A DNA stretch of 64,000 bases from a virus. The first letter of the stretch is position 1, and every line of letters starts with the position of its first letter. The stretch covers positions 1-64,000 of the IMG/VR virus record IMGVR_UViG_3300028920_000055, one strand, 5' to 3'. The position numbers were made by a program, and so were the translations under genes. This document shows, in pieces, positions 13,953 through 62,790 of this stretch. The notes under the pieces are model-generated. The model was given only the letters and a program-made list of their open reading frames with translations. It was not told where the DNA came from and did no database searches.

Positions 13953-13985
13953 GGGATAAGCTGGTCTAACCAACCGGCTTATCCC
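13953..13985 (+). terminator. hairpin ending the early block
   Basis: GGGATAAGCTGGT...ACCGGCTTATCCC; no U-tail on the + strand. Confidence 0.5.
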
Positions 13986-14112: not shown

Positions 14113-14322
14113 GGAAACCAAAAAATTTAGAACTTACAACAAACTATAACCTATTGACTATTAAGGACTTACTAAGTACTTAATTCTATTGACTATAGCT
14201 ATTTTCTATATACTATTATAAATAAAAGGGTTATATATAACTATATAATAGTTAATACTATAACTAAGTTTTAACTATTAACGATTAATTCGTTATTTTT
14301 AACGAAAAAAATAAACAGTGTC

Positions 14323-14420
14323 AAAAGCCGATTAGCACGTTATAGAACGTTAAAAGCCGGTTGCAAAACCCTATTATCAAAAGCCGGTTGCAAAAAGCCG
14401 ATTAGCACGTTATAGAACGT
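14323..14420. repeat. nested direct repeats
   Basis: AAAAGCCGATTAGCACGTTATAGAACGT x2 enclosing AAAAGCCGGTTGCAAAA x2. Confidence 0.85.
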
Positions 14421-14518
14421 CAAAACCGGTCAATAGTATATAGTTAGTCGTTAGTTGACCTTTTCCGGCTTTAACGTTTTTTCGCTAAAATCTTTTTTAA
14501 AAAAAAGTAAAAAATAGC

Positions 14519-14587
14519 TTGACAAAAAGATAATAGTTTATTATATTCCGTTAGTCGTTAGATTAGCGTTAGACGGTTCTTTGAAAA
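14519..14587 (+). promoter_or_regulatory. rrn-like promoter with UP element and boxA (cassette 1)
   Basis: TTGACA(14519)-17-TATATT(14542), A-tract upstream, GTTCTTTGAAAA at 14576-14587. Confidence 0.85.
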
Positions 14588-14633
14588 TCGTTCTATTTCC
14601 GGCTTTAACTCTTTTTTCAAAAAGGGGAAAGTT

Positions 14634-15014
14634 ATGAAAACCGAACCGAAAAAAGCCGAAAAGCCGGTTGCAAAAAGCCGAAAAAAGCCGGTTGCAAAAA
14701 GTCAATATATCGTTAACGTCAAAAAGGGAAATAAAACCCTTAGATTGACGGTTAACGATATTCAAAAAGCCGATTATCACGTTTTAAATTCGATAGCCAA
14801 ACTGGCAAACGTTTATTATCCCGGTTTCCAGTTTTTGCCCCGCGCGGGGAAAATATCCGTTATTATTTCCCCGAATAGCGCGGAATCTAAAAGGTTTCGC
14901 GCGGAAACCGAAAAAAAGGTCAAGGATTCTGCCGAACGTCAAAAAGCCGGTTTGACGGAATATAGAAAAACCCTAAGAGCGGAAAAGGAAAAGATCGACT
15001 CTTTTCTTAGTTGA
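14634..15014 (+). CDS. basic hypothetical protein (cassette 1)
   Basis: AAGGGGAAAGTT RBS, own promoter and terminator. Confidence 0.75.
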   Translation: MKTEPKKAEKPVAKSRKKPVAKSQYIVNVKKGNKTLRLTVNDIQKADYHVLNSIAKLANVYYPGFQFLPRAGKISVIISPNSAESKRFRAETEKKVKDSAERQKAGLTEYRKTLRAEKEKIDSFLS

Positions 15015-15076
15015 CCGGTCTAAGGGTTAGCACGTCAATTGACTAAAATCGGCCGGAAATAGAACGTAATAACGCT

Positions 15077-15113
15077 AAAAAAGCCCTATAGTTTAACTAT
15101 AGGGCTTTTTTTT
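15077..15113 (+). terminator. intrinsic terminator
   Basis: AAAAAAGCCCTATAGT-tta-ACTATAGGGCTTTTTTTT. Confidence 0.85.
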
Positions 15114-15332
15114 ATATTTTAACGTGAAAATCGTAAATATTAGCGTATATAGTTAATAGTTTATTATAAGTTTATATAGGGCTTTTTAAAATGCGCTATA
15201 TAAAGCCCTTAGTTAAAAGTATAGCGTTAATCGTTAATAGGGCTTTATATAGGGCTTTATAATCGTTAATAGTTTATAGTTAGTTGACCTTTTCCGGCTT
15301 TAAAAATAAACGAAAAAAAAGTAAAAAATAGC

Positions 15333-15401
15333 TTGACAAAAAGGTTTTAATTTATTATATTACGTTAGTCGTTAGATTAGCGTTAGACGGTTCTTTGAAA
15401 A
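15333..15401 (+). promoter_or_regulatory. rrn-like promoter with UP element and boxA (cassette 2)
   Basis: TTGACA(15333)-17-TATATT(15356), GTTCTTTGAAAA at 15390-15401; near-duplicate of the cassette 1 promoter/leader. Confidence 0.85.
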
Positions 15402-15446
15402 TCGGCTTTTCGGTTTTGCATAACGAAAAAGGAAAAGGGGAAAGTT

Positions 15447-15884
15447 ATGCAAAACCTAAATATTAATCTTTATCGTTTAAACGATTCCCAATTGACCGAT
15501 TATAGAAACCTTTTAGCAAAAGAGATATTAACCTTAGAATTGACGGAATCCTTAGATAAAGCCCTTTTTTCTCTTTTGACCGTTAAACTGGAAACCGTTA
15601 ATACTATGCTAACCCTTAGAAAAAAGGTTAGCACGTTAAATCGTAAAAGGTCAATTGACCGGTCAAAAAGGGTCAAATATTTTCGGGATTTAAAAGAGGC
15701 GGTAAAAGCCCTTAAAAAGGAACCGGCTTTAAATTACGTTATAGTATTTAACCCCTATATAAACGATTTTCGCAGAATAGAACGTTATTTGACCTATAGG
15801 GGAAAAGATTTAAAACCGGTTCTAAAAATCGGCTTTTCTTATTTAATCGGTTCTAACGAAAAAAAAGCGATAGCTTATAAATAA
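15447..15884 (+). CDS. basic hypothetical protein (cassette 2)
   Basis: AAGGGGAAAGTT RBS, own promoter and terminator. Confidence 0.75.
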   Translation: MQNLNINLYRLNDSQLTDYRNLLAKEILTLELTESLDKALFSLLTVKLETVNTMLTLRKKVSTLNRKRSIDRSKRVKYFRDLKEAVKALKKEPALNYVIVFNPYINDFRRIERYLTYRGKDLKPVLKIGFSYLIGSNEKKAIAYK

Positions 15885-15929
15885 CTAACTAACGTTATGC
15901 AAAACTGAAAAGCCCTATTAACGCTATAT

Positions 15930-15962
15930 AAAGCCCTATAGTCAAGCTATAGGGCTTTTTTT
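15930..15962 (+). terminator. intrinsic terminator
   Basis: AAAGCCCTATAG-tcaag-CTATAGGGCTTTTTTT. Confidence 0.85.
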
Positions 15963-16218
15963 ATTTCCGGTTGCAAAACCCCGGAAAGTATATACGGGAT
16001 TATTAAACTCTTTGCAAAACCCTATTATCAAAACCCTATTATCAATTGACCTTTTCCCTTATTAAATCCCTTTTTGCATAACGATTAGCAAAACCCTATT
16101 ATCAAAACCCTATAGGGTATAGTATACCCCAACAGCCTATTAGCTATTGACTATTAGCTATTATCAATTGACGGTTTTCAATAGTCAATTGACTATAGAC
16201 TATATACGCTATACTATA

Positions 16219-16253
16219 CCCTATACCCTATACCCTATACCCTATACCCTATA
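16219..16253. repeat. tandem (CCCTATA)5
   Basis: Five exact 7-mers. Confidence 0.95.
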
Positions 16254-16440
16254 GACTATTAACGTATATACTATTATTAACTAACTACGAATAGTTAGCT
16301 ATTATTAACGACTATAAACTATTAATAAATAGTATTAACTATAAACTATTGACTATTAACGACTTACAACAGGGGGGGTCTATTAACAATGTAGAGCTAA
16401 CGGGAAGCGACTAACAGCATATACCATTTTTACATTGGAG

Positions 16441-16519
16441 TGTTTTCGAATAAAACACAAGTTTTAATGTTACAATATAATGTTTTCGAATAAATGAGAC
16501 TATAATGTTTTCGAATAAA
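16441..16519. repeat. three direct repeats TGTTTTCGAATAAA
   Basis: Copies at 16441, 16481, 16506. Confidence 0.9.
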
Positions 16520-16751
16520 ACAATAAATGAAAAACATAAAAGGTGTTCGATGGTTTCGTTATATATATCTTTTCTATCCCTCTATAGGGGAGATTTTACG
16601 TATTTTATTACATTTTCTTACATAAATATTTATCCGGTCAGATCGATTTTTTTCTTTACTTTTAGCGGGTTTTTCCTTATATTTAGATAACGTTAACGGC
16701 TTAATTAATTACTATAGTATCTCCCAAGTTCCAGGGAGAGAGTACAATGGA

Positions 16752-16874
16752 CTTGCTTTAGCTCTTGGTAGGGCCGGTAGGTTCATACCCTACTGTAGCG
16801 AATGGTGGTTTTTCCCGTATCGGGTTTTTCCCACCTAACAGGCTATGTGGTTCGATTCCGCGTGAGTGGGTCCA
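16752..16874 (+). tRNA. atypical tRNA, anticodon CAT (Met/Ile2-like), with ~50-nt variable arm
   Basis: Acceptor CTTGCTT/GAGTGGG, TA, D-arm GCTC-TTGGTA-GGGC, anticodon arm CGGTAGG-TTCATAC-CCTACTG, T-arm TGTGG-TTCGATT-CCGCG, encoded TCCA end. Confidence 0.65.
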
Positions 16875-16900
16875 TTGTACTTCTATTGTAAGGAGGGATT

Positions 16901-38541: not shown

Positions 38542-38979
38542 ATGAGGGAAAGCGCAATAGCAACTGCCGGAGATGTAATATCCGGGATTGTTGATAGGAT
38601 TGATGCTGAAAAAAAGCATCCGCCCGGATGTCAATGTACAGAGTGCGTTGAAAGTATGTTTACTGGAAACATTGAACGCATCAAAGGCGGTAATGGGGAT
38701 TTGGATGAAAATCAAGAGCTGCTTAAACAAAGCCTTGAAACAGACGAAAAAGAGAGGGAGTTGGCCAATAAAAAGGCAATTGAAGGAGAAGGCAACAATA
38801 AATTGGCCAATTTCTCTCATATTATGAATGTCATTCTTGTCTATTTTACGGCTTCTGGAATTATGATCGCCGGTTTAAGTATGCTCGTAACATTGATTAT
38901 TAATCCAACAATCCAGACCAGTTTAGCTCATGCTGTAACTATGATTGTGTTAGGCATCATCAATGAGAGGATCAAATAA
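38542..38979 (+). CDS. membrane protein upstream of portal
   Basis: HPPGCQCTEC motif, two C-terminal TM helices. Confidence 0.55.
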   Translation: MRESAIATAGDVISGIVDRIDAEKKHPPGCQCTECVESMFTGNIERIKGGNGDLDENQELLKQSLETDEKERELANKKAIEGEGNNKLANFSHIMNVILVYFTASGIMIAGLSMLVTLIINPTIQTSLAHAVTMIVLGIINERIK

Positions 38980-40559
38980 TGAGTTTAGGATTTAACAAAG
39001 CGTTTACAATAGATGTTTCTACTGATCCTGCAACTCGAAAGGGCAAACTGGATAGCTCTGAGTTTTTACAGGGTGGTGCTGGAGTAGGTATTTATGGTGG
39101 TGGAAGAAGATTGGAAGGTGGAGATACTCCCAGCAAAGTGATGGTGACTGAGCTTGATTTTCCCACTATGGAAGCTATGTATCACGGAAACGTATGGGTA
39201 CGTGCTTGCATTGATAAAATAGTGAGAAGAGCCACCGCCGTAAAGCCAATGTTACGTCCCATTCTTAGAAAGCCTACAGAAAAGCCTAATCGTGTACAAA
39301 GAAAGAGAATGGATCAAATCGAACAACTATTGGCTGTTCCAAACGATATGCAGGAATCCCACGAAAGCATCCTAAAGAAGATTTTTACAGATGTATTAAT
39401 TTGGGATGCCGCTGGTTTGGAGCTGGTTGGAGACAATTCCGAAATAGATGAGATATATGCTGTAAGCGGTGATACAATTCGAAAGAATGTGGATGAAAGG
39501 GGGATTTTTCGAAGCCAAAGCAGAGCCTATATCCAAAAAGAGAATTATACGGGCAAAACAGTGGCTTCTTTTGCTGCTGACGAATTGTGTTACTTTATGC
39601 AATATCCAAGAGCAAAACGGGTGTACGGATTTTCTCCACTTGAATCTCTGCGTCAAACTGTAACATCTGAATTGTATGCCGCAGAATTCAATAAAAATCG
39701 ATTCGTCAACGATGCCACGCCAAGATTTGCAATGATGTTCGAGAATCTTGGAATGGGACAAGGTGAACCGGCTATCAAAAGATTACGTCAATGGTGGGAT
39801 CAAGAATTGAAAGGTAAACCCCACCGACCTATTCTTATTGGTTCCGAAAATGGTCAGATTAAATTCGAAAAAATTGGTCTGACCAATGAAGATATGCAAT
39901 TCCAAGAATATTCTCGTTGGCTTCTTTCAAAGATTATGGCCGTTTATCACATGCAAGCCGCCGTTCTTGGAGTAATCGAAATAAATCAAGGTCGCATCAA
40001 TGCATCTTATCAAGAGGAACAATTCAAAAAAGATGCTTTGCGCCCATTGTTACAGATGTATTCTAATCAATTTAACACTCTTCTCATCTGGTCAAATAGT
40101 AATTTAGGATATAACGATATTTATTTGACTTGGGAAGGATTAGATGCTCTGGATAGATTGGCGGAAGCCGAAATACACGAAATATATTTGCGATATGGAG
40201 TGTTTACCATTAATATGGTATTGAAAGAATTGGGTATGGAATCTGTTCCTTGGGGAGATGTTCCATACTTGCTTAATCAAATGCTCCCAATCGAAATGCA
40301 TCCGGAAGAAAAGCGCGAAACAGAGCCGGGACGTAAGCCTGGTGAAAAGCCTGAGCTATCCGAAACAACTTATGTTGACGAGAACGGAAAGCTCAATGTG
40401 GAGAAATGGTTAAGAGCCGGATTGACGAAAGGTGGGCTTATTCCAACAGGTTTGGAACGAGTGGAGAAGAGTGAATTGAAAGAAGCCATTTCTCGAATCA
40501 AACGAAATAGACAACAAATAAGATCGGCTAAAGTCATTGATTTCACGGAGTTGGAATAA
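38979..40559 (+). CDS. portal protein (HK97 family)
   Basis: WVRACIDKI, YGFSPLE, F.N.A.P, DMQF.E......I..V. Confidence 0.9.
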   Translation: MSLGFNKAFTIDVSTDPATRKGKLDSSEFLQGGAGVGIYGGGRRLEGGDTPSKVMVTELDFPTMEAMYHGNVWVRACIDKIVRRATAVKPMLRPILRKPTEKPNRVQRKRMDQIEQLLAVPNDMQESHESILKKIFTDVLIWDAAGLELVGDNSEIDEIYAVSGDTIRKNVDERGIFRSQSRAYIQKENYTGKTVASFAADELCYFMQYPRAKRVYGFSPLESLRQTVTSELYAAEFNKNRFVNDATPRFAMMFENLGMGQGEPAIKRLRQWWDQELKGKPHRPILIGSENGQIKFEKIGLTNEDMQFQEYSRWLLSKIMAVYHMQAAVLGVIEINQGRINASYQEEQFKKDALRPLLQMYSNQFNTLLIWSNSNLGYNDIYLTWEGLDALDRLAEAEIHEIYLRYGVFTINMVLKELGMESVPWGDVPYLLNQMLPIEMHPEEKRETEPGRKPGEKPELSETTYVDENGKLNVEKWLRAGLTKGGLIPTGLERVEKSELKEAISRIKRNRQQIRSAKVIDFTELE

Positions 40560-58236: not shown

Positions 58237-58664
58237 GAAATCTAACAGAGCGCCAACAGATAAAGTATGAGGTGTTAAGAGCACAACATCGAGCAAGTGA
58301 AGTAAGAAAGGCGATACCAAGCAGTGAAAGAATAAGTTACAAACGATTGTTTTATGTTCTGGCTACCGAATGTGGCTGGACCATTGATTATATAGCAGGT
58401 CTTAAATCTAAACAAATAAGATTGTTTTGGGAAGGAAGGAAAGATCATTTTGAATCGTTGGAGAAGTCCAAAGGTGAAGTAGAAACAAGGAAATCTAATT
58501 TAAGCAACCAACTACAGTCGGCTTCTGGTGGAAAATTTAAAAAACCATTTCCGAAGTCACGGGCCATGGCTGTACCGCCAACTCCTGATATAACAGATAC
58601 GAAAGATATGTTAAGATCGGGAATGTTTAAGGTCGGTGACATGAGGAAGAAGAAAAATGGCTAA
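58095..58664 (+). CDS. tail assembly chaperone -1 frameshift extension (gpGT-like)
   Basis: The -1 frame opens right after TGA 58092-58094 and runs to 58664; LA.E.GWT.DYI..L motif. Confidence 0.75.
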   Translation, partial: FFIRHAGSEESGPSRSESRRSKRKFGINVADGKIKGQPWRELKEEEIRNLTERQQIKYEVLRAQHRASEVRKAIPSSERISYKRLFYVLATECGWTIDYIAGLKSKQIRLFWEGRKDHFESLEKSKGEVETRKSNLSNQLQSASGGKFKKPFPKSRAMAVPPTPDITDTKDMLRSGMFKVGDMRKKKNG

Positions 58665-61600
58665 GAAACGATACACAGTTGCCGAATTAGTTGTAACAGT
58701 CAAAGGCGATGTAACAAGCCTTGTCAATGAACTTGACAAGGGTGTCTCCGATATAAAGAAATTTTCAGGAGACATGACCCGCGTTAATCGTGATTTGGTT
58801 AAGGTTGGTGCGGGAATGACAGTTGCTGCCGGAGCTATTATCGGGGCCGGAGCCGCAGCTGTTAAAGTGTTTGCTGATTTGGAACAATCGATAGCGAACA
58901 CTGCCTCAGTTACCGGCGATACATCAAGAGGTCTGAAGGAACTTGAAGCCTTTGCTCGTAAGATGGGCCGTACAACTATTTATACGGCTACACAAGCGGG
59001 CGAGGCTATGTATTATCTTGCCTCTGCTGGTTATAATGCTCAACAGATTTTTGATGGTTTAGAGGGCATCCTTGCTCTTGCCGCCGCTACACAATTCGAT
59101 CTTGCCGAAACGACCGCCACAGTAGTTTCTACATTACGTGCTTTTAATATGGAGGCTTCAGAAGCCTCAAGGGTGGCCAACGTATTTGCCGCCGCTATAT
59201 CTTCATCTCAGGCGACAATGTTTAAATTGTCGGAGTCTATGAAATACGTGGCTCCAGTTTTCGCCAGCTTAGATTGGAATATCGAATCTACAGTTGCTGC
59301 CTTATCTAAATTGTATGACAGTGGTCTCGAAGCCTCTATGTCAGGTACACAATTGCGTATGGCCATGACAAGGCTTCAAAAGCCTACCAGAGCCGCCCGT
59401 CAAGCCATTTCCGATCTTGGTGTAAAATTTAATGATTTGGATCCAGCCGCCAATAGTCTTGTTGACATTATATGGGCACTGGAAGAAGCCAACGCCGGAG
59501 CCGCCGAAAAAGGAAGGCTCATGTCAGAGATTTTCGGTGTTCGTTCTAAGAACGCAATGACTATCCTTGTAAGGACTGGAAGTTCTGCGCTTGCCGAAAT
59601 GGTAGACAATATTACAAATACTACCAAAGCCGCTGATATGCAGCAACGTCAGATTGATACGTTGAAAGGTACTTGGAGGCTGATGACATCAGCATTACAA
59701 GAAACATCTATTATTATCGGAACCAATTTGGAACCGGCTCTTAAAGCCATAATGGAGTCGATACGTCAATTGAATCTTTCGTTCAGTGCTTTACCCGATT
59801 TTGTTAAAACGATAATTGTAGGATTTACAGCACTTTCGGCTGTATTTTTAGCTGTGGGCGGGGCAGTTACTATGATTGTTGGTAACTTACCAAGATTAAT
59901 TGAAGGGTTGACTTTATTGAGAGCTGTGGCCGCAGGATTAGGATGGCAAATATCAGCGGTAACTGTTGGTATTATGGCATTGTTGGCTGCTTTCGGATAT
60001 TTGGCTTCTGCTCAAGAGAGGCAAAAGCGGCTGTTTGAAGAGAACATTTTGGAAATGAAGAATGCTATCAATTTGCGGAGAAAAGAAGAAAAAGCTATTG
60101 TTAATTCTGTAAAACAGTTAGAAAAATTGGTAGATGTACAAGAGGATAATAAAACGCTCTATGGACAGCAACAAAGAGCTATCAATAGGCTTAACAGTGT
60201 CGTACCTGGTCTTGTAGATAAAAATAAAAGTCTTGCGGAACAAATGGACAAGCTAAAAGACGCAGCAAATGAAGCCGAAAAAGAAGTTGAGGAATTGGGA
60301 GATCAATTGGAACGTGTGGAGGGTATTAAATTAAAGCGCACACTTTCTGAAAACAGAGAAGAAATAAAGAAATTGGAAGAGGATTTAAGAACTGGTGCAG
60401 GGTTGAAAGATTGGGTAAATGATGCTAAAGAATTCAAGTTAGAATCTTCTATGGTTCCGAAGGATTGGGATCATTTACAGAAAACAATGAATGGCGTATC
60501 CAAAGGTGCTTTCAAGAACATATTGGAAAATTCGAAATCTATATCTATACTTAATAGAGGTATTGGTGTAGACGTATCGAAATACAGAGATAATATGGAA
60601 AAAATTGCTTATGACGGTACAACTTATACTAATTTATTGGAGTATCAAGATCGGCTTTCAGATACAAGATTGGATGCTCAACAGAAATTTTTTGAACTCC
60701 AAGATAAACTTAACAATAGAAGCGAAAGCATGACATCTTATGAAGCCGAGCAACTTGTGCTTCTACAAAGAGAATATGCGATATTAAAAATGATGGACGA
60801 TGTTACTGCTGAAACTGTAAATAAAGTCGATACAATAAGGCAATTGAGACAAGAAAACAAAGAAATAGAAGAAGGAACAAAACCAACTGAAGAAGTTGAT
60901 GGTGAAGGTGGAGAGGATGAAAAATTGGCGAGACAACGAGAAGCATTGGAATTGGAGATTGCTGCTTATGGAGCCAAGAACAGGAGAGAAGTCAGAGAAA
61001 AGGAGCTTAAAAAATGGGAAAATACAATGAGGAATCGTCTTCATGAGCTTCAAATGGACGAAACTGAACTGAATAGAGTGGTGGCTATTAAAAAGAAAGA
61101 AATTGAAAGAGAAGCGGCTATTGATATAGCCACATACGAAAAAATGGTAATGATGAAAACCAGCAAAGATATATTTCAATCAAAGATAGCTGAATTAGAT
61201 ATATGGGTGGAACAAGCTGTTGAAAGAGGAAGGGAAGTTGGTTTAAGCGAGGCGGAATCTCGTATCAATGCTGAAAAAGCCTATGCTGCTGAAAAATTAA
61301 GAATTGAAAGAGATATTAATCAAGCAATCGAAAAAATGTCAAAAGATGTAAGTCTCGAATTACAAGAGGCAAGACTTGACAGTATTCGTAATACACAAGA
61401 GAGAGCTATAGCAGAGGAACAGTTAAAATATAATCAGGAAATAGCCAGTGCTAAATATGCTCTCAATGAAGAAACAAAAGCTGTTGAACAAGGATTAATA
61501 ACCAAAGAGCAAGTCCAACAGAATTATAGAAGTAGGATGGAGGCGGCTGAAGCGTCTCATACGGAAAGATTGAGACAATTGAATTATGATTATACAATGC

Positions 61601-62790
61601 AAGTGGAAAATGATCGTGCTACTTTGGCGGCGAGAATTAAAGAGATACAAGCCAAAACAGATACAAGCTCTCTTTACCAAAGAGACATCGAAATGTTAAG
61701 AGCCGCTAATATTGAAAAACTTAACAGTGTAGATCAATATTATGCTCAATTAATGGAGAAATATGTTGGAGACGAAGAAACAATAATTGATCTTGAAAAG
61801 AAACACAATGCTGAAAGAGAAGCCGCCAAAGATGAACTTAATGATAACATATTAGCTTTGCAAGTTGAATATGAAGTAAGGCGGCTTGAGATCGAGCTTG
61901 CTGGATTGGATAAAGACGATAGGATGTACAAAAAGAGATTGGAGCAACATAAAGAATTTTTAGAAAATAAATTGGAACAAATGAAAACTTACGGTGAAGG
62001 TAGAGAGGAAGTGGAAGAGGAATTAAATGCCACAGAAGAAGATTTGGAAGATCAAAGGAAAAGACGTGAAAAGAGAATCGAAAAACACGCCGCAAAGACA
62101 TTTGAGCTTATTGAAAAGGCGGCTGTAGCTTCTTCTGTTGGTCAAGCGGATGCTTGGAGAGAAGCGGCAAAAGAATATATCGCCCTACAGGCAGCATCAC
62201 TCAAAGGTGAGATTATATTAAAACTTGCCAAAGATACTGCTTCTTTTAATTGGTTTGGCGTAGCTAAGTGGACAGCTGCTTACGCCGCTGTAACTGCTGC
62301 TGAACATGCTGCTTATGCTTTATTGGGTAAAAGACAAAGACCAACTGCAGCTTATGGTGGAGAAATAGAAAGTGGTGGAGAGGCTTGGGTACACCCTGGA
62401 GAATGGATATTTCCAAGAGGTGTTGTAAATGAATTGAAGGGGGCAAATATAACAAGAAAGCCATGGCATGAATATCGCAATACTATGGCTGAAGGATTGA
62501 ATTTACCAATATCTTCTAATCCTATGGCTAATGCAGGAGCAGTTGGTGGAACAAATGAAGTTATAAAACAACAAGAAAGAACTGTTAATATTAAATTCGA
62601 AATAGACGCCAATGGTGCCATAATAACTCCTGCTAATGTGGATGAACAAGATGCTTTTTATGAGAGAATAATAAAGCCAGCAGAAGAAAGATTTAAAGAA
62701 GCCATTGGTGAAATGGAAGATAATTCTCAACACGGCGATCCTATTGGTTATTTGGATAGTTTTCACAGTCTTATAGTTAAAAAACTTTGA
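58657..62790 (+). CDS. tape measure protein (TP901 family)
   Basis: T.YTATQAGEAMYYLASAG, L.LAAA, MKYVAPV, GTQLR; long helical body. Confidence 0.92.
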   Translation: MAKKRYTVAELVVTVKGDVTSLVNELDKGVSDIKKFSGDMTRVNRDLVKVGAGMTVAAGAIIGAGAAAVKVFADLEQSIANTASVTGDTSRGLKELEAFARKMGRTTIYTATQAGEAMYYLASAGYNAQQIFDGLEGILALAAATQFDLAETTATVVSTLRAFNMEASEASRVANVFAAAISSSQATMFKLSESMKYVAPVFASLDWNIESTVAALSKLYDSGLEASMSGTQLRMAMTRLQKPTRAARQAISDLGVKFNDLDPAANSLVDIIWALEEANAGAAEKGRLMSEIFGVRSKNAMTILVRTGSSALAEMVDNITNTTKAADMQQRQIDTLKGTWRLMTSALQETSIIIGTNLEPALKAIMESIRQLNLSFSALPDFVKTIIVGFTALSAVFLAVGGAVTMIVGNLPRLIEGLTLLRAVAAGLGWQISAVTVGIMALLAAFGYLASAQERQKRLFEENILEMKNAINLRRKEEKAIVNSVKQLEKLVDVQEDNKTLYGQQQRAINRLNSVVPGLVDKNKSLAEQMDKLKDAANEAEKEVEELGDQLERVEGIKLKRTLSENREEIKKLEEDLRTGAGLKDWVNDAKEFKLESSMVPKDWDHLQKTMNGVSKGAFKNILENSKSISILNRGIGVDVSKYRDNMEKIAYDGTTYTNLLEYQDRLSDTRLDAQQKFFELQDKLNNRSESMTSYEAEQLVLLQREYAILKMMDDVTAETVNKVDTIRQLRQENKEIEEGTKPTEEVDGEGGEDEKLARQREALELEIAAYGAKNRREVREKELKKWENTMRNRLHELQMDETELNRVVAIKKKEIEREAAIDIATYEKMVMMKTSKDIFQSKIAELDIWVEQAVERGREVGLSEAESRINAEKAYAAEKLRIERDINQAIEKMSKDVSLELQEARLDSIRNTQERAIAEEQLKYNQEIASAKYALNEETKAVEQGLITKEQVQQNYRSRMEAAEASHTERLRQLNYDYTMQVENDRATLAARIKEIQAKTDTSSLYQRDIEMLRAANIEKLNSVDQYYAQLMEKYVGDEETIIDLEKKHNAEREAAKDELNDNILALQVEYEVRRLEIELAGLDKDDRMYKKRLEQHKEFLENKLEQMKTYGEGREEVEEELNATEEDLEDQRKRREKRIEKHAAKTFELIEKAAVASSVGQADAWREAAKEYIALQAASLKGEIILKLAKDTASFNWFGVAKWTAAYAAVTAAEHAAYALLGKRQRPTAAYGGEIESGGEAWVHPGEWIFPRGVVNELKGANITRKPWHEYRNTMAEGLNLPISSNPMANAGAVGGTNEVIKQQERTVNIKFEIDANGAIITPANVDEQDAFYERIIKPAEERFKEAIGEMEDNSQHGDPIGYLDSFHSLIVKKL

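Follow-up and report, generated by a model that had tools for sequence, protein, structure and literature searches.

How do two short protein-coding messages of a phage come to carry the layout of a ribosomal RNA (rRNA) precursor? The question is raised by two tandem gene cassettes at positions 14499-15111 and 15313-15958 of the IMG/VR virus record IMGVR_UViG_3300028920_000055. The stretch of DNA that was analysed as a whole, hereafter the window, comprises positions 1 to 64,000 and is the first part of this 90,051-bp record; every gene lies on the + strand. Textbook accounts of rRNA synthesis include boxA, the Nus complex and leader-trailer helices, and outside rRNA boxA is, to our knowledge, known only from the nut sites of lambdoid phages and from a few cellular mRNA leaders. 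In each of the two cassettes, a strong promoter and a boxA precede a single open reading frame (ORF), which is enclosed by a predicted helix between the 5' untranslated region (UTR) and the trailer and followed by an intrinsic terminator. We interpret the cassettes as an rrn-style module, in which boxA would recruit Nus factors and the leader-trailer helix would frame the mRNA, and give this interpretation about an even chance of being correct. Sequence, predicted fold and recurrence provide a sound basis for the underlying analogy with rrn operons.

The initial annotation of this DNA had described promoters, leader, boxA, arms, outer helices and terminators, and all of these motifs were found where it had placed them. 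An identical ribosome-binding block, AAAAGGGGAAAGTTATG, which is present in both cassettes, adds to its list of elements. The elements are the following:

14443-14474, + strand: conserved upstream block of cassette 1, GTTAG..TTGACCTTTTCCGGCTTTAA, aligning with 15272-15303 as a direct repeat
15272-15303, + strand: conserved upstream block of cassette 2, aligned to the block of cassette 1
14499-14547, + strand: A/T-rich UP-like tract and promoter 1 (TTGACA at 14519-14524, 17-nt spacer, TATATT at 14542-14547)
15313-15361, + strand: A/T-rich UP-like tract and promoter 2 (TTGACA at 15333-15338, 17-nt spacer, TATATT at 15356-15361)
14550-14575, + strand: leader 1, identical to leader 2, carrying the 5' strand of the outer helix (14564-14571)
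15364-15389, + strand: leader 2, carrying the 5' strand of the outer helix (15378-15385)
14576-14587, + strand: boxA 1, GTTCTTTGAAAA, predicted to be single-stranded in an internal loop
15390-15401, + strand: boxA 2, GTTCTTTGAAAA
14589-14603, + strand: inner 5' arm of cassette 1, a perfect 15-nt complement of 15052-15066
15404-15425, + strand: inner 5' arm of cassette 2, 22 nt pairing with 15893-15914 through 21 Watson-Crick pairs and one G:U
14620-14636, + strand: ribosome-binding block 1, AAAAGGGGAAAGTTATG, start codon included, identical to 15433-15449
15433-15449, + strand: ribosome-binding block 2, AAAAGGGGAAAGTTATG, start codon included, identical to 14620-14636
14634-15014, + strand: ORF 1, 126 aa, Lys-rich and basic, with no detectable relatives
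15447-15884, + strand: ORF 2, 145 aa, basic, with no detectable relatives
15052-15077, + strand: trailer 1, consisting of the inner 3' arm (15052-15066), TAA and the outer 3' strand TAACGCTA (15070-15077)
15893-15926, + strand: trailer 2, consisting of the inner 3' arm (15893-15914), CTAT and the outer 3' strand TAACGCTA (15919-15926)
15077-15111, + strand: intrinsic terminator 1, a 16-bp stem including GCCCTATAG/CTATAGGGC and then a U tract, with the hairpin at 15083-15105
15930-15958, + strand: intrinsic terminator 2, with the hairpin at 15933-15955

The A/T tract, the promoter, the leader and GTTCTTTGAAAA are spanned by a 92-nt direct repeat (14499-14590 and 15313-15404) that is 95% identical between the cassettes. 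Both promoters are the top sigma-70 matches within 5-24 kb (11/12 with a 17-nt spacer), and both terminators are among the three strongest in the same region. Transcription of cassette 1 is predicted to start at about 14553-14554. With start sites being predicted, boxA begins 28 nt past the -10 hexamer in both cassettes, and 45-46 nt lie between boxA and the start codon. The 26-nt leader has two exact copies in the 90,051-bp genome, where none is expected by chance, and GTTCTTTGAAAA is likewise confined to the two cassettes. In one sediment run, a minority variant of terminator 2 carries five extra nucleotides, ATTCC, at 15942, which affect only the loop and leave the stem intact.

Alignment of the two paralogues separates conserved from divergent parts. 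Identity extends through AAAATCG, after which the 5' arms diverge, and resumes over AAAAGGGGAAAGTTATG; the ORF and the 3' arm diverge again, and the stretch from TAACGCTA to the end of the terminator is again alike in both units. Within the UTRs, only the arms differ between the two paralogues, yet their pairing is kept. The perfect 15-mer of cassette 1 and the 22-nt pairing with one G:U of cassette 2 were both confirmed. Further outward, an 8-bp helix TAGCGTTA/TAACGCTA is formed by 14564-14571 with 15070-15077 and by 15378-15385 with 15919-15926, which brings total pairing to 15+8 bp in cassette 1 and 22+8 bp in cassette 2.

When full-length transcripts are folded with RNAfold, as the initial annotation had suggested, the inner and outer helices appear in both the minimum free energy (MFE) and the centroid structures, with z-scores of -7.6 and -5.7. 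Mean pair probabilities from the partition function lie in the range of 0.92-0.99 (inner helix 1, 0.92; outer helix 1, 0.93; inner helix 2, 0.99; outer helix 2, 0.94). In the predicted fold, boxA is located in an internal loop of 17-18/3-4 nt between the inner and outer helices. The unpaired probability is 0.78-0.96 for boxA 1 and 0.7-0.95 for the central bases of boxA 2, so that the proposed bulging of boxA between two helices is borne out by the pair probabilities. The length of the longest contiguous helix between 5' and 3' flanks sets the cassettes apart among 105 genes of the phage: it reaches 22 and 16 bp in the cassettes, with 13 bp for the next gene and a median of 8 bp. Contiguous length was used as the ranking measure because RNAduplex energies separated the cassettes poorly from other genes (-35.9 and -33.4 vs -32.9 for an interrupted duplex of another gene). 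Between the cassettes, the energies discriminate clearly, with -33.4 and -35.9 kcal/mol for the cognate pairs of 5'UTR and trailer vs -9.3 and -15.9 for the cross-pairs.

The identification of the 12-mer as an rrn boxA is corroborated by an exact match (12/12) 90 nt upstream of the 5' end of a Paenibacillus 16S rRNA gene, where it follows a TTGAC-type promoter. GTTCTTTGAAAA is also contained in published primers for the 16S-23S spacer of Mycoplasma. It departs at position 8 (G) from the gamma-proteobacterial boxA consensus GYTCTTTAANA (PMC5725501) and is therefore a variant of the Firmicute/Mollicute type. A search of metagenome contigs with the 18-nt context of boxA gave 50 unrelated matches, among which there were neither relatives of the cassettes nor rrn leaders.

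The use of this element by other phages was assessed by scanning IMG/VR with the pattern TTGACA-N16-18-TANNNT-N15-45-GTTCTTTGAAAA, with the same pattern containing the reversed 12-mer as control. At least 120 loci matched, vs 13 in total for the reversed 12-mer, which corresponds to an at least 9-fold enrichment of boxA behind sigma-70-type promoters. None of the 120 matches listed has a 16S gene downstream. About 78 of them represent one leader type, consisting of a hairpin and boxA, and all seven that were tested (7/7) precede a GOLLD RNA. The remaining 42 of the 120 matches listed are not of the GOLLD type; others precede transfer RNA (tRNA) arrays, manA RNA or ROOL RNA. As these 42 matches alone exceed the 13 of the control, boxA is recurrent in phage transcripts, chiefly in structured non-coding ones. 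The exact leader pattern of the cassettes gave no match in IMG/VR.

As a side observation, the region upstream of phage GOLLD genes holds a conserved sigma-70-type promoter, a boxB-like hairpin and an exact GTTCTTTGAAAA; this arrangement was found in the IMG/VR loci L163, L219, L139, L147, L134, L199 and L167. No study mentioning GOLLD RNA together with boxA was found in a literature search.

A set of 91 non-redundant phage boxA leaders was then used to ask for the longest contiguous helix between the neighbourhood of boxA and the region 100-2500 nt downstream. Six loci stand out, namely L187 (28 bp), L194 (27 bp), L102 (26 bp), L150 (26 bp), L172 (21 bp) and L220 (18 bp). Their helices begin within boxA or a few nucleotides past it and close 280-600 nt downstream, whereas the control with reversed targets gave 19 bp once and otherwise 17 bp at most. 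In three of these loci the helix encloses an ORF, with 67 aa in L194, 67 aa in L102 and 142 aa in L220. Clear Shine-Dalgarno sites precede the ORFs of L194 and L102, and the pair probabilities of the three helices are 0.96-0.996. Beyond the search pattern, these three loci share no sequence with the phage studied here. In L150 (reverse strand, oriented positions 1325-1944), the helix closes a ROOL RNA (RF03087), and boxA lies within the 5' strand of the closing helix, where it is paired through several G:U pairs; a position of boxA inside the helix is also found in L102. The search of other phages for boxA with an ORF-enclosing helix, which the initial annotation had called for, thus yielded six unrelated loci, three of them with ORFs, and no orthologues of the cassettes. 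These loci provide independent evidence that boxA with an enclosing helix is a selected RNA design that is sometimes applied to protein genes. A published description of an mRNA with boxA and an end helix was not found in the literature searched.

Two of the six loci differ in content. In L187 (oriented positions 1519-1844) and L172 (2289-2606), segments of about 270 nt without an ORF lie within the 28- and 21-bp helices beside tRNA genes. Neither segment matched an Rfam family, and both are candidates for new phage non-coding RNAs.

A mechanism for the cassettes can be proposed after the rrn model, in which boxA bound by NusB/NusE anchors the leader to RNA polymerase and pairing with the trailer is promoted (PMC10250234). 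In the leader-trailer helix of this model, structure counts more than sequence, RNase III subsequently cuts, and boxA alone suffices in the rrn operons of E. coli (PMC10250234). An mRNA leader with boxA is known from suhB (PMC5725501). In the cassettes, host RNA polymerase would start at the strong sigma-70-type promoter, and boxA would emerge about 23 nt into the transcript and nucleate a NusB/NusE antitermination complex on the polymerase. The 5' arm, located 1-2 nt behind boxA, would remain anchored close to the RNA exit channel as the ORF is looped out. Once the 3' arm has been made, the arms would zip into the leader-trailer helix, and the strong intrinsic terminator would end the unit. 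The product would be a discrete, end-paired mRNA with boxA exposed in an internal loop; because the 8-bp outer helix places boxA in this loop, the element should remain accessible in the finished RNA. The double-stranded stalk is a plausible substrate for RNase III, and at the helix base the stop codon would come to lie beside the ribosome-binding site. The phage would probably gain rapid synthesis that resists Rho, an mRNA protected at both ends, and translation that is confined to completed transcripts.

For cassette 2, an additional step may operate. The part of its 5' arm at 15412-15424 is perfectly complementary over 13 bp to the start-codon region at 15444-15456, and the resulting hairpin dominates the predicted folds of 99- and 134-nt nascent transcripts but has a probability of 0 in the full-length RNA. 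The 5' arm would thus hide the AUG until it is displaced by the 3' arm. The restriction of this hairpin to nascent RNA suggests that translation is licensed only after synthesis of the trailer. This switch is held loosely, because no comparable alternative hairpin of the 5' arm was found in cassette 1 (z-scores of -1.1 and +0.5).

Several points weigh against the interpretation as an rrn-style module. The boxA is typed as Firmicute/Mollicute, and it may not be the host's own element. Neither a clear boxB nor a clear boxC was seen, and folds of the nascent leader give a weak 5-bp hairpin at 14556-14568. Translated monocistronic mRNAs have no obvious need of protection against Rho. Without stacking on the outer helix, the 15-16 bp of the inner helix in cassette 1 would make a short substrate for RNase III. 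At 16 bp this helix is also barely above the chance maximum of 14 bp in the repeat-rich island of about 2.2 kb (14140-16378) in which both cassettes are located and which holds eight exact inverted pairs of at least 15 nt. Because inverted words abound there, the perfect complementarity of 15 nt in cassette 1 is weak evidence when taken alone; the repeated placement of the arms, not the 15-mer itself, carries the weight. The inner arms had been described as unrelated sequences that keep their pairing. Each does pair, and the sequences differ, but they are partly alike and have a common core, TTTYCGGYTTT. Provided that these cores are homologous, one compensatory change from C:G to U:A separates them. 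Finally, no orthologous cassettes were found, and any covariation between the arms can be judged from two paralogues only.

The alternative that survives best, although it is unlikely, is a Nus-independent clamp between the 5'- and 3'-UTRs, in which the helix by itself protects the mRNA from RNases that depend on a 5' or 3' end, or else controls translation, and the boxA-like 12-mer is merely a spacer or binds something else. The helices are indeed robust in folding, the 5' arm of cassette 2 can sequester the AUG in its nascent 13-bp hairpin, and a clamp does without an anti-Rho protection that translated mRNAs would not need. Pairing between the UTRs also has precedents in Bacillus subtilis hbs and Staphylococcus aureus icaR. 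Against a clamp stands the 12/12 rrn boxA directly before the 5' arm in both cassettes, which is unlikely to have arisen by chance. Moreover, the 12-mer is at least 9-fold enriched behind phage promoters and joined to long helices in six unrelated loci, and cassette 1 has no hairpin comparable to that of cassette 2.

A second alternative, which we consider improbable, is that the cassettes produce abundant, stable RNAs as boxA decoys, which soak up NusB/NusE and depress host rRNA synthesis, with the proteins as a second payload. Competition of transcribed boxA for NusB is established in the lambda literature, the promoters are strong and duplicated, boxA is predicted to be single-stranded between the two helices of the mature fold, and the RNA ends are guarded by pairing and by the terminator hairpin. 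However, a decoy could do without an ORF and its conserved, strong ribosome-binding site, and the location of boxA inside the helix in L102 and L150 is unfit for display as a general rule.

The island itself suggests a further explanation, to which we assign a similarly small probability: the flanks could be a by-product of DNA repeats, in that the island draws on a small set of words in both orientations, be it for protein binding, as an origin or as the end injected first, and the complementarity of the flanks is due to chance or to recombination scars without a role in RNA. The diversity of 8-mers is lower in the island than anywhere else in the genome, about 30% of them are also present there as reverse complement (genome median 6%), and the inverted pairs of the island have been mentioned above. 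Words of the island, TTCCGGCTTTAA and TTTTGCATAACG among them, recur in the arms. In addition, trinucleotides are depleted in the island as reverse-complement pairs (TGT, 1 vs 39.5 expected; TGG, 2 vs 50; ATG, 5 vs 57; ACA, 6 vs 51), and this strand-symmetric depletion points to a constraint at the DNA level. Yet when each 5'UTR is slid over all windows of the island, its own trailer is the best partner in both cassettes, and both arm pairs lie inside the promoter-terminator unit at matching relative positions. Island windows with the real spacing of the arms give at most 14 contiguous pairs except at the true arms, so that the 22-bp helix is above every spaced control, and the design recurs in phages without such an island. 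Separately, a transposon with the arms as terminal inverted repeats was considered and rejected, as promoter and terminator are located outside the arms, which in turn enclose the conserved ribosome-binding block.

The likeness to rRNA precursors claimed by the initial annotation holds for the miniature rrn layout of promoter, boxA, helix and terminator; support was found neither for the toxin-style gating that it had offered as an option nor for its proposals of immediate-early messages and of circularised transcripts. Although end-to-end pairing of an mRNA is the hallmark of the fbi elements of hok-type systems and the 5' arm of cassette 2 has mutually exclusive pairings, a type I toxin-like fold-back mRNA that is kept inert until processing is very improbable here, since the products of 126 and 145 aa are hydrophilic and basic without a hydrophobic helix, no convincing antisense promoter or antisense RNA was seen at the cassettes, and the long-range helix of cassette 2 frees the AUG instead of blocking it.

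With the rrn-style module as the preferred interpretation, the cassettes can be compared with known systems, among them boxA and leader-trailer helix of rrn, nut sites, mRNA leaders with boxA and UTR clamps. With rrn operons (E. coli model, PMC10250234; rrnTAC) they share a strong promoter preceded by an A/T-rich tract and, some 20-25 nt from the start of the transcript, an exact boxA of the rrn type. Immediately after boxA comes the 5' strand of a long helix, whose partner strand lies shortly beyond the enclosed product, and in both cases the unit is closed by a strong intrinsic terminator. In contrast to rrn operons, the cassettes enclose a translated ORF of 126 or 145 aa with a strong ribosome-binding site instead of rRNA, the units are only about 560-600 nt long, no clear boxB or boxC was seen, and an extra 8-bp outer helix loops out boxA. 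The nut sites of phage lambda, which combine boxA and boxB and act with N and Nus factors, resemble the cassettes in that a phage transcript carries a host-type boxA close behind an early promoter. They differ in their N-binding boxB hairpin, of which the cassettes have no counterpart beyond the weak 5-bp stem, and in the type of boxA, which in the cassettes has G at position 8 and does not conform to GYTCTTTAANA. Furthermore, each cassette stops at its own terminator without read-through into downstream genes.

Leaders of the suhB type share with the cassettes a boxA within about 50 nt upstream of the start codon (PMC5725501). The Nus complex represses translation and promotes Rho termination there, and a leader-trailer helix is missing (PMC5725501). 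The early mRNAs of T7 and SP82 that RNase III processes are comparable in being phage messages that host polymerase transcribes and that have double-stranded RNA at their boundaries. Their RNase III sites are local hairpins between the genes of one long transcript, whereas in the cassettes both ends of a single message make up the helix, with boxA coupled to it. Long-range pairing between the UTRs of one mRNA is shared with hok fbi, hbs and icaR. The helices of these mRNAs are shorter or overlap the ribosome-binding site, and we know of none with boxA or with an rrn-like layout from promoter to terminator. The GOLLD (RF02032) and ROOL (RF03087) RNAs of phages have the same leader with promoter and boxA in phage genomes and, in the ROOL RNA of L150, a closing helix that contains boxA. 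These are large non-coding RNAs, whereas the cassettes enclose an ORF with a ribosome-binding site.

Both ORFs begin 6 nt past a GGGG Shine-Dalgarno sequence and occupy the whole space between the arms in a stop-rich region of 33% GC, and we take them as real genes. Their products (P0001 and P0002) have no significant similarity to each other. Both proteins are free of Trp and Cys, and both cassette RNAs are free of ACA. No relatives of the cassettes were found by blastn and tblastn against INPHARED, and both ORFs returned only themselves from IMG/VR, from 5.8 billion proteins and from the ESM Atlas, as did ORF 2 in a HMMER search of 1.84 billion representatives. A protein family was found for neither ORF in these searches.

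The phage is uncultivated, and matching DNA was found in three marine-sediment metagenome runs; no RNA run is listed among the runs containing the locus. The matching contigs are identical to the window except for one substitution at 13962, outside the cassettes, and the 5-nt insertion in the loop of terminator 2. Two other contigs also encode the cassette proteins. The window encodes a portal protein (38979-40559), a prohead protease/capsid region, a tape-measure protein (58657-62790) and a glycosyltransferase island, and past the window follow a DnaB-like helicase, a primase, an SNF2 helicase and a 5'-3' exonuclease. A 257-aa protein with an N-terminal Rho_N/SAP domain (L098, 16773-17546; genome positions 80773-81546) has its gene between those of the primase and the exonuclease. 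In a scan of about 50 proteins, which was not exhaustive, neither a phage RNA polymerase, RNase III or RNA ligase nor an antiterminator family turned up. INPHARED contains no close relative of the phage. Relatives of the portal protein in L001-L004 have 55-66% identity, and their contigs stop short of the region equivalent to the cassettes. In the search for a host, homologues of the phage aminotransferase were scattered over many phyla.

The island is compositionally foreign. Its observed/expected ratio is 1.81 for CpG vs 0.83 in the rest of the genome, and 0.38 for CA and TG vs about 1.1. Direct-repeat arrays at 14320-14430 and 15960-16260 flank the pair of cassettes; they contain AAAAGCCGGTTGCAAAA, AAAACCCTATTATCAAAACCCTAT, a 33-nt unit present twice and tandem CCCTATA, and one of the words occurs twice inside ORF 1. 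They resemble arrays of iterons or operators. At 15113-15312, the spacer from terminator 1 to promoter 2 holds inverted partial copies of words from the trailer and terminator of cassette 2, and 15232-15252 is complementary to 15909-15939 in two blocks. Just downstream of the G7 run at 16373-16379, where the island ends, three direct ATGTTTTCGAATAAA-like copies are found at 16441-16520. Rfam gave nothing above threshold over 13.5-17.5 kb. A tRNA-like element at 16741-16884, enclosed by a perfect 12-bp stem AGTACAATGGAC/GTCCATTGTACT, scored 27.9 bits with the Rfam tRNA-Sec family, which is below threshold, and was negative with ARAGORN.

The recurrence of boxA with enclosing helices leads to a broader proposal, which is tentative and to which we give somewhat less than an even chance: phages of many host phyla may package selected small-protein mRNAs as miniature rRNA operons, alongside GOLLD, ROOL, tRNA and other non-coding RNAs, with boxA recruiting the antitermination/chaperone complex of rRNA synthesis and the helix closing the message. 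If this is true, end-paired bacterial mRNAs that use the machinery of rRNA transcription and processing would form a general class that has not been described so far. The two cassettes would be its most self-contained form, with their own promoter, their own terminator and boxA displayed between two helices. They would also offer a compact, portable expression cassette for Firmicute-type hosts, consisting of promoter, insulating leader, end clamp and terminator, and the proposed chaperone role of the antitermination complex would become testable by a simple protein readout. A closed bacterial mRNA with paired ends would then be known from nature, and a protein-coding message of full rrn layout would show that the transcription and chaperone machinery of rRNA is usable for ordinary mRNAs.

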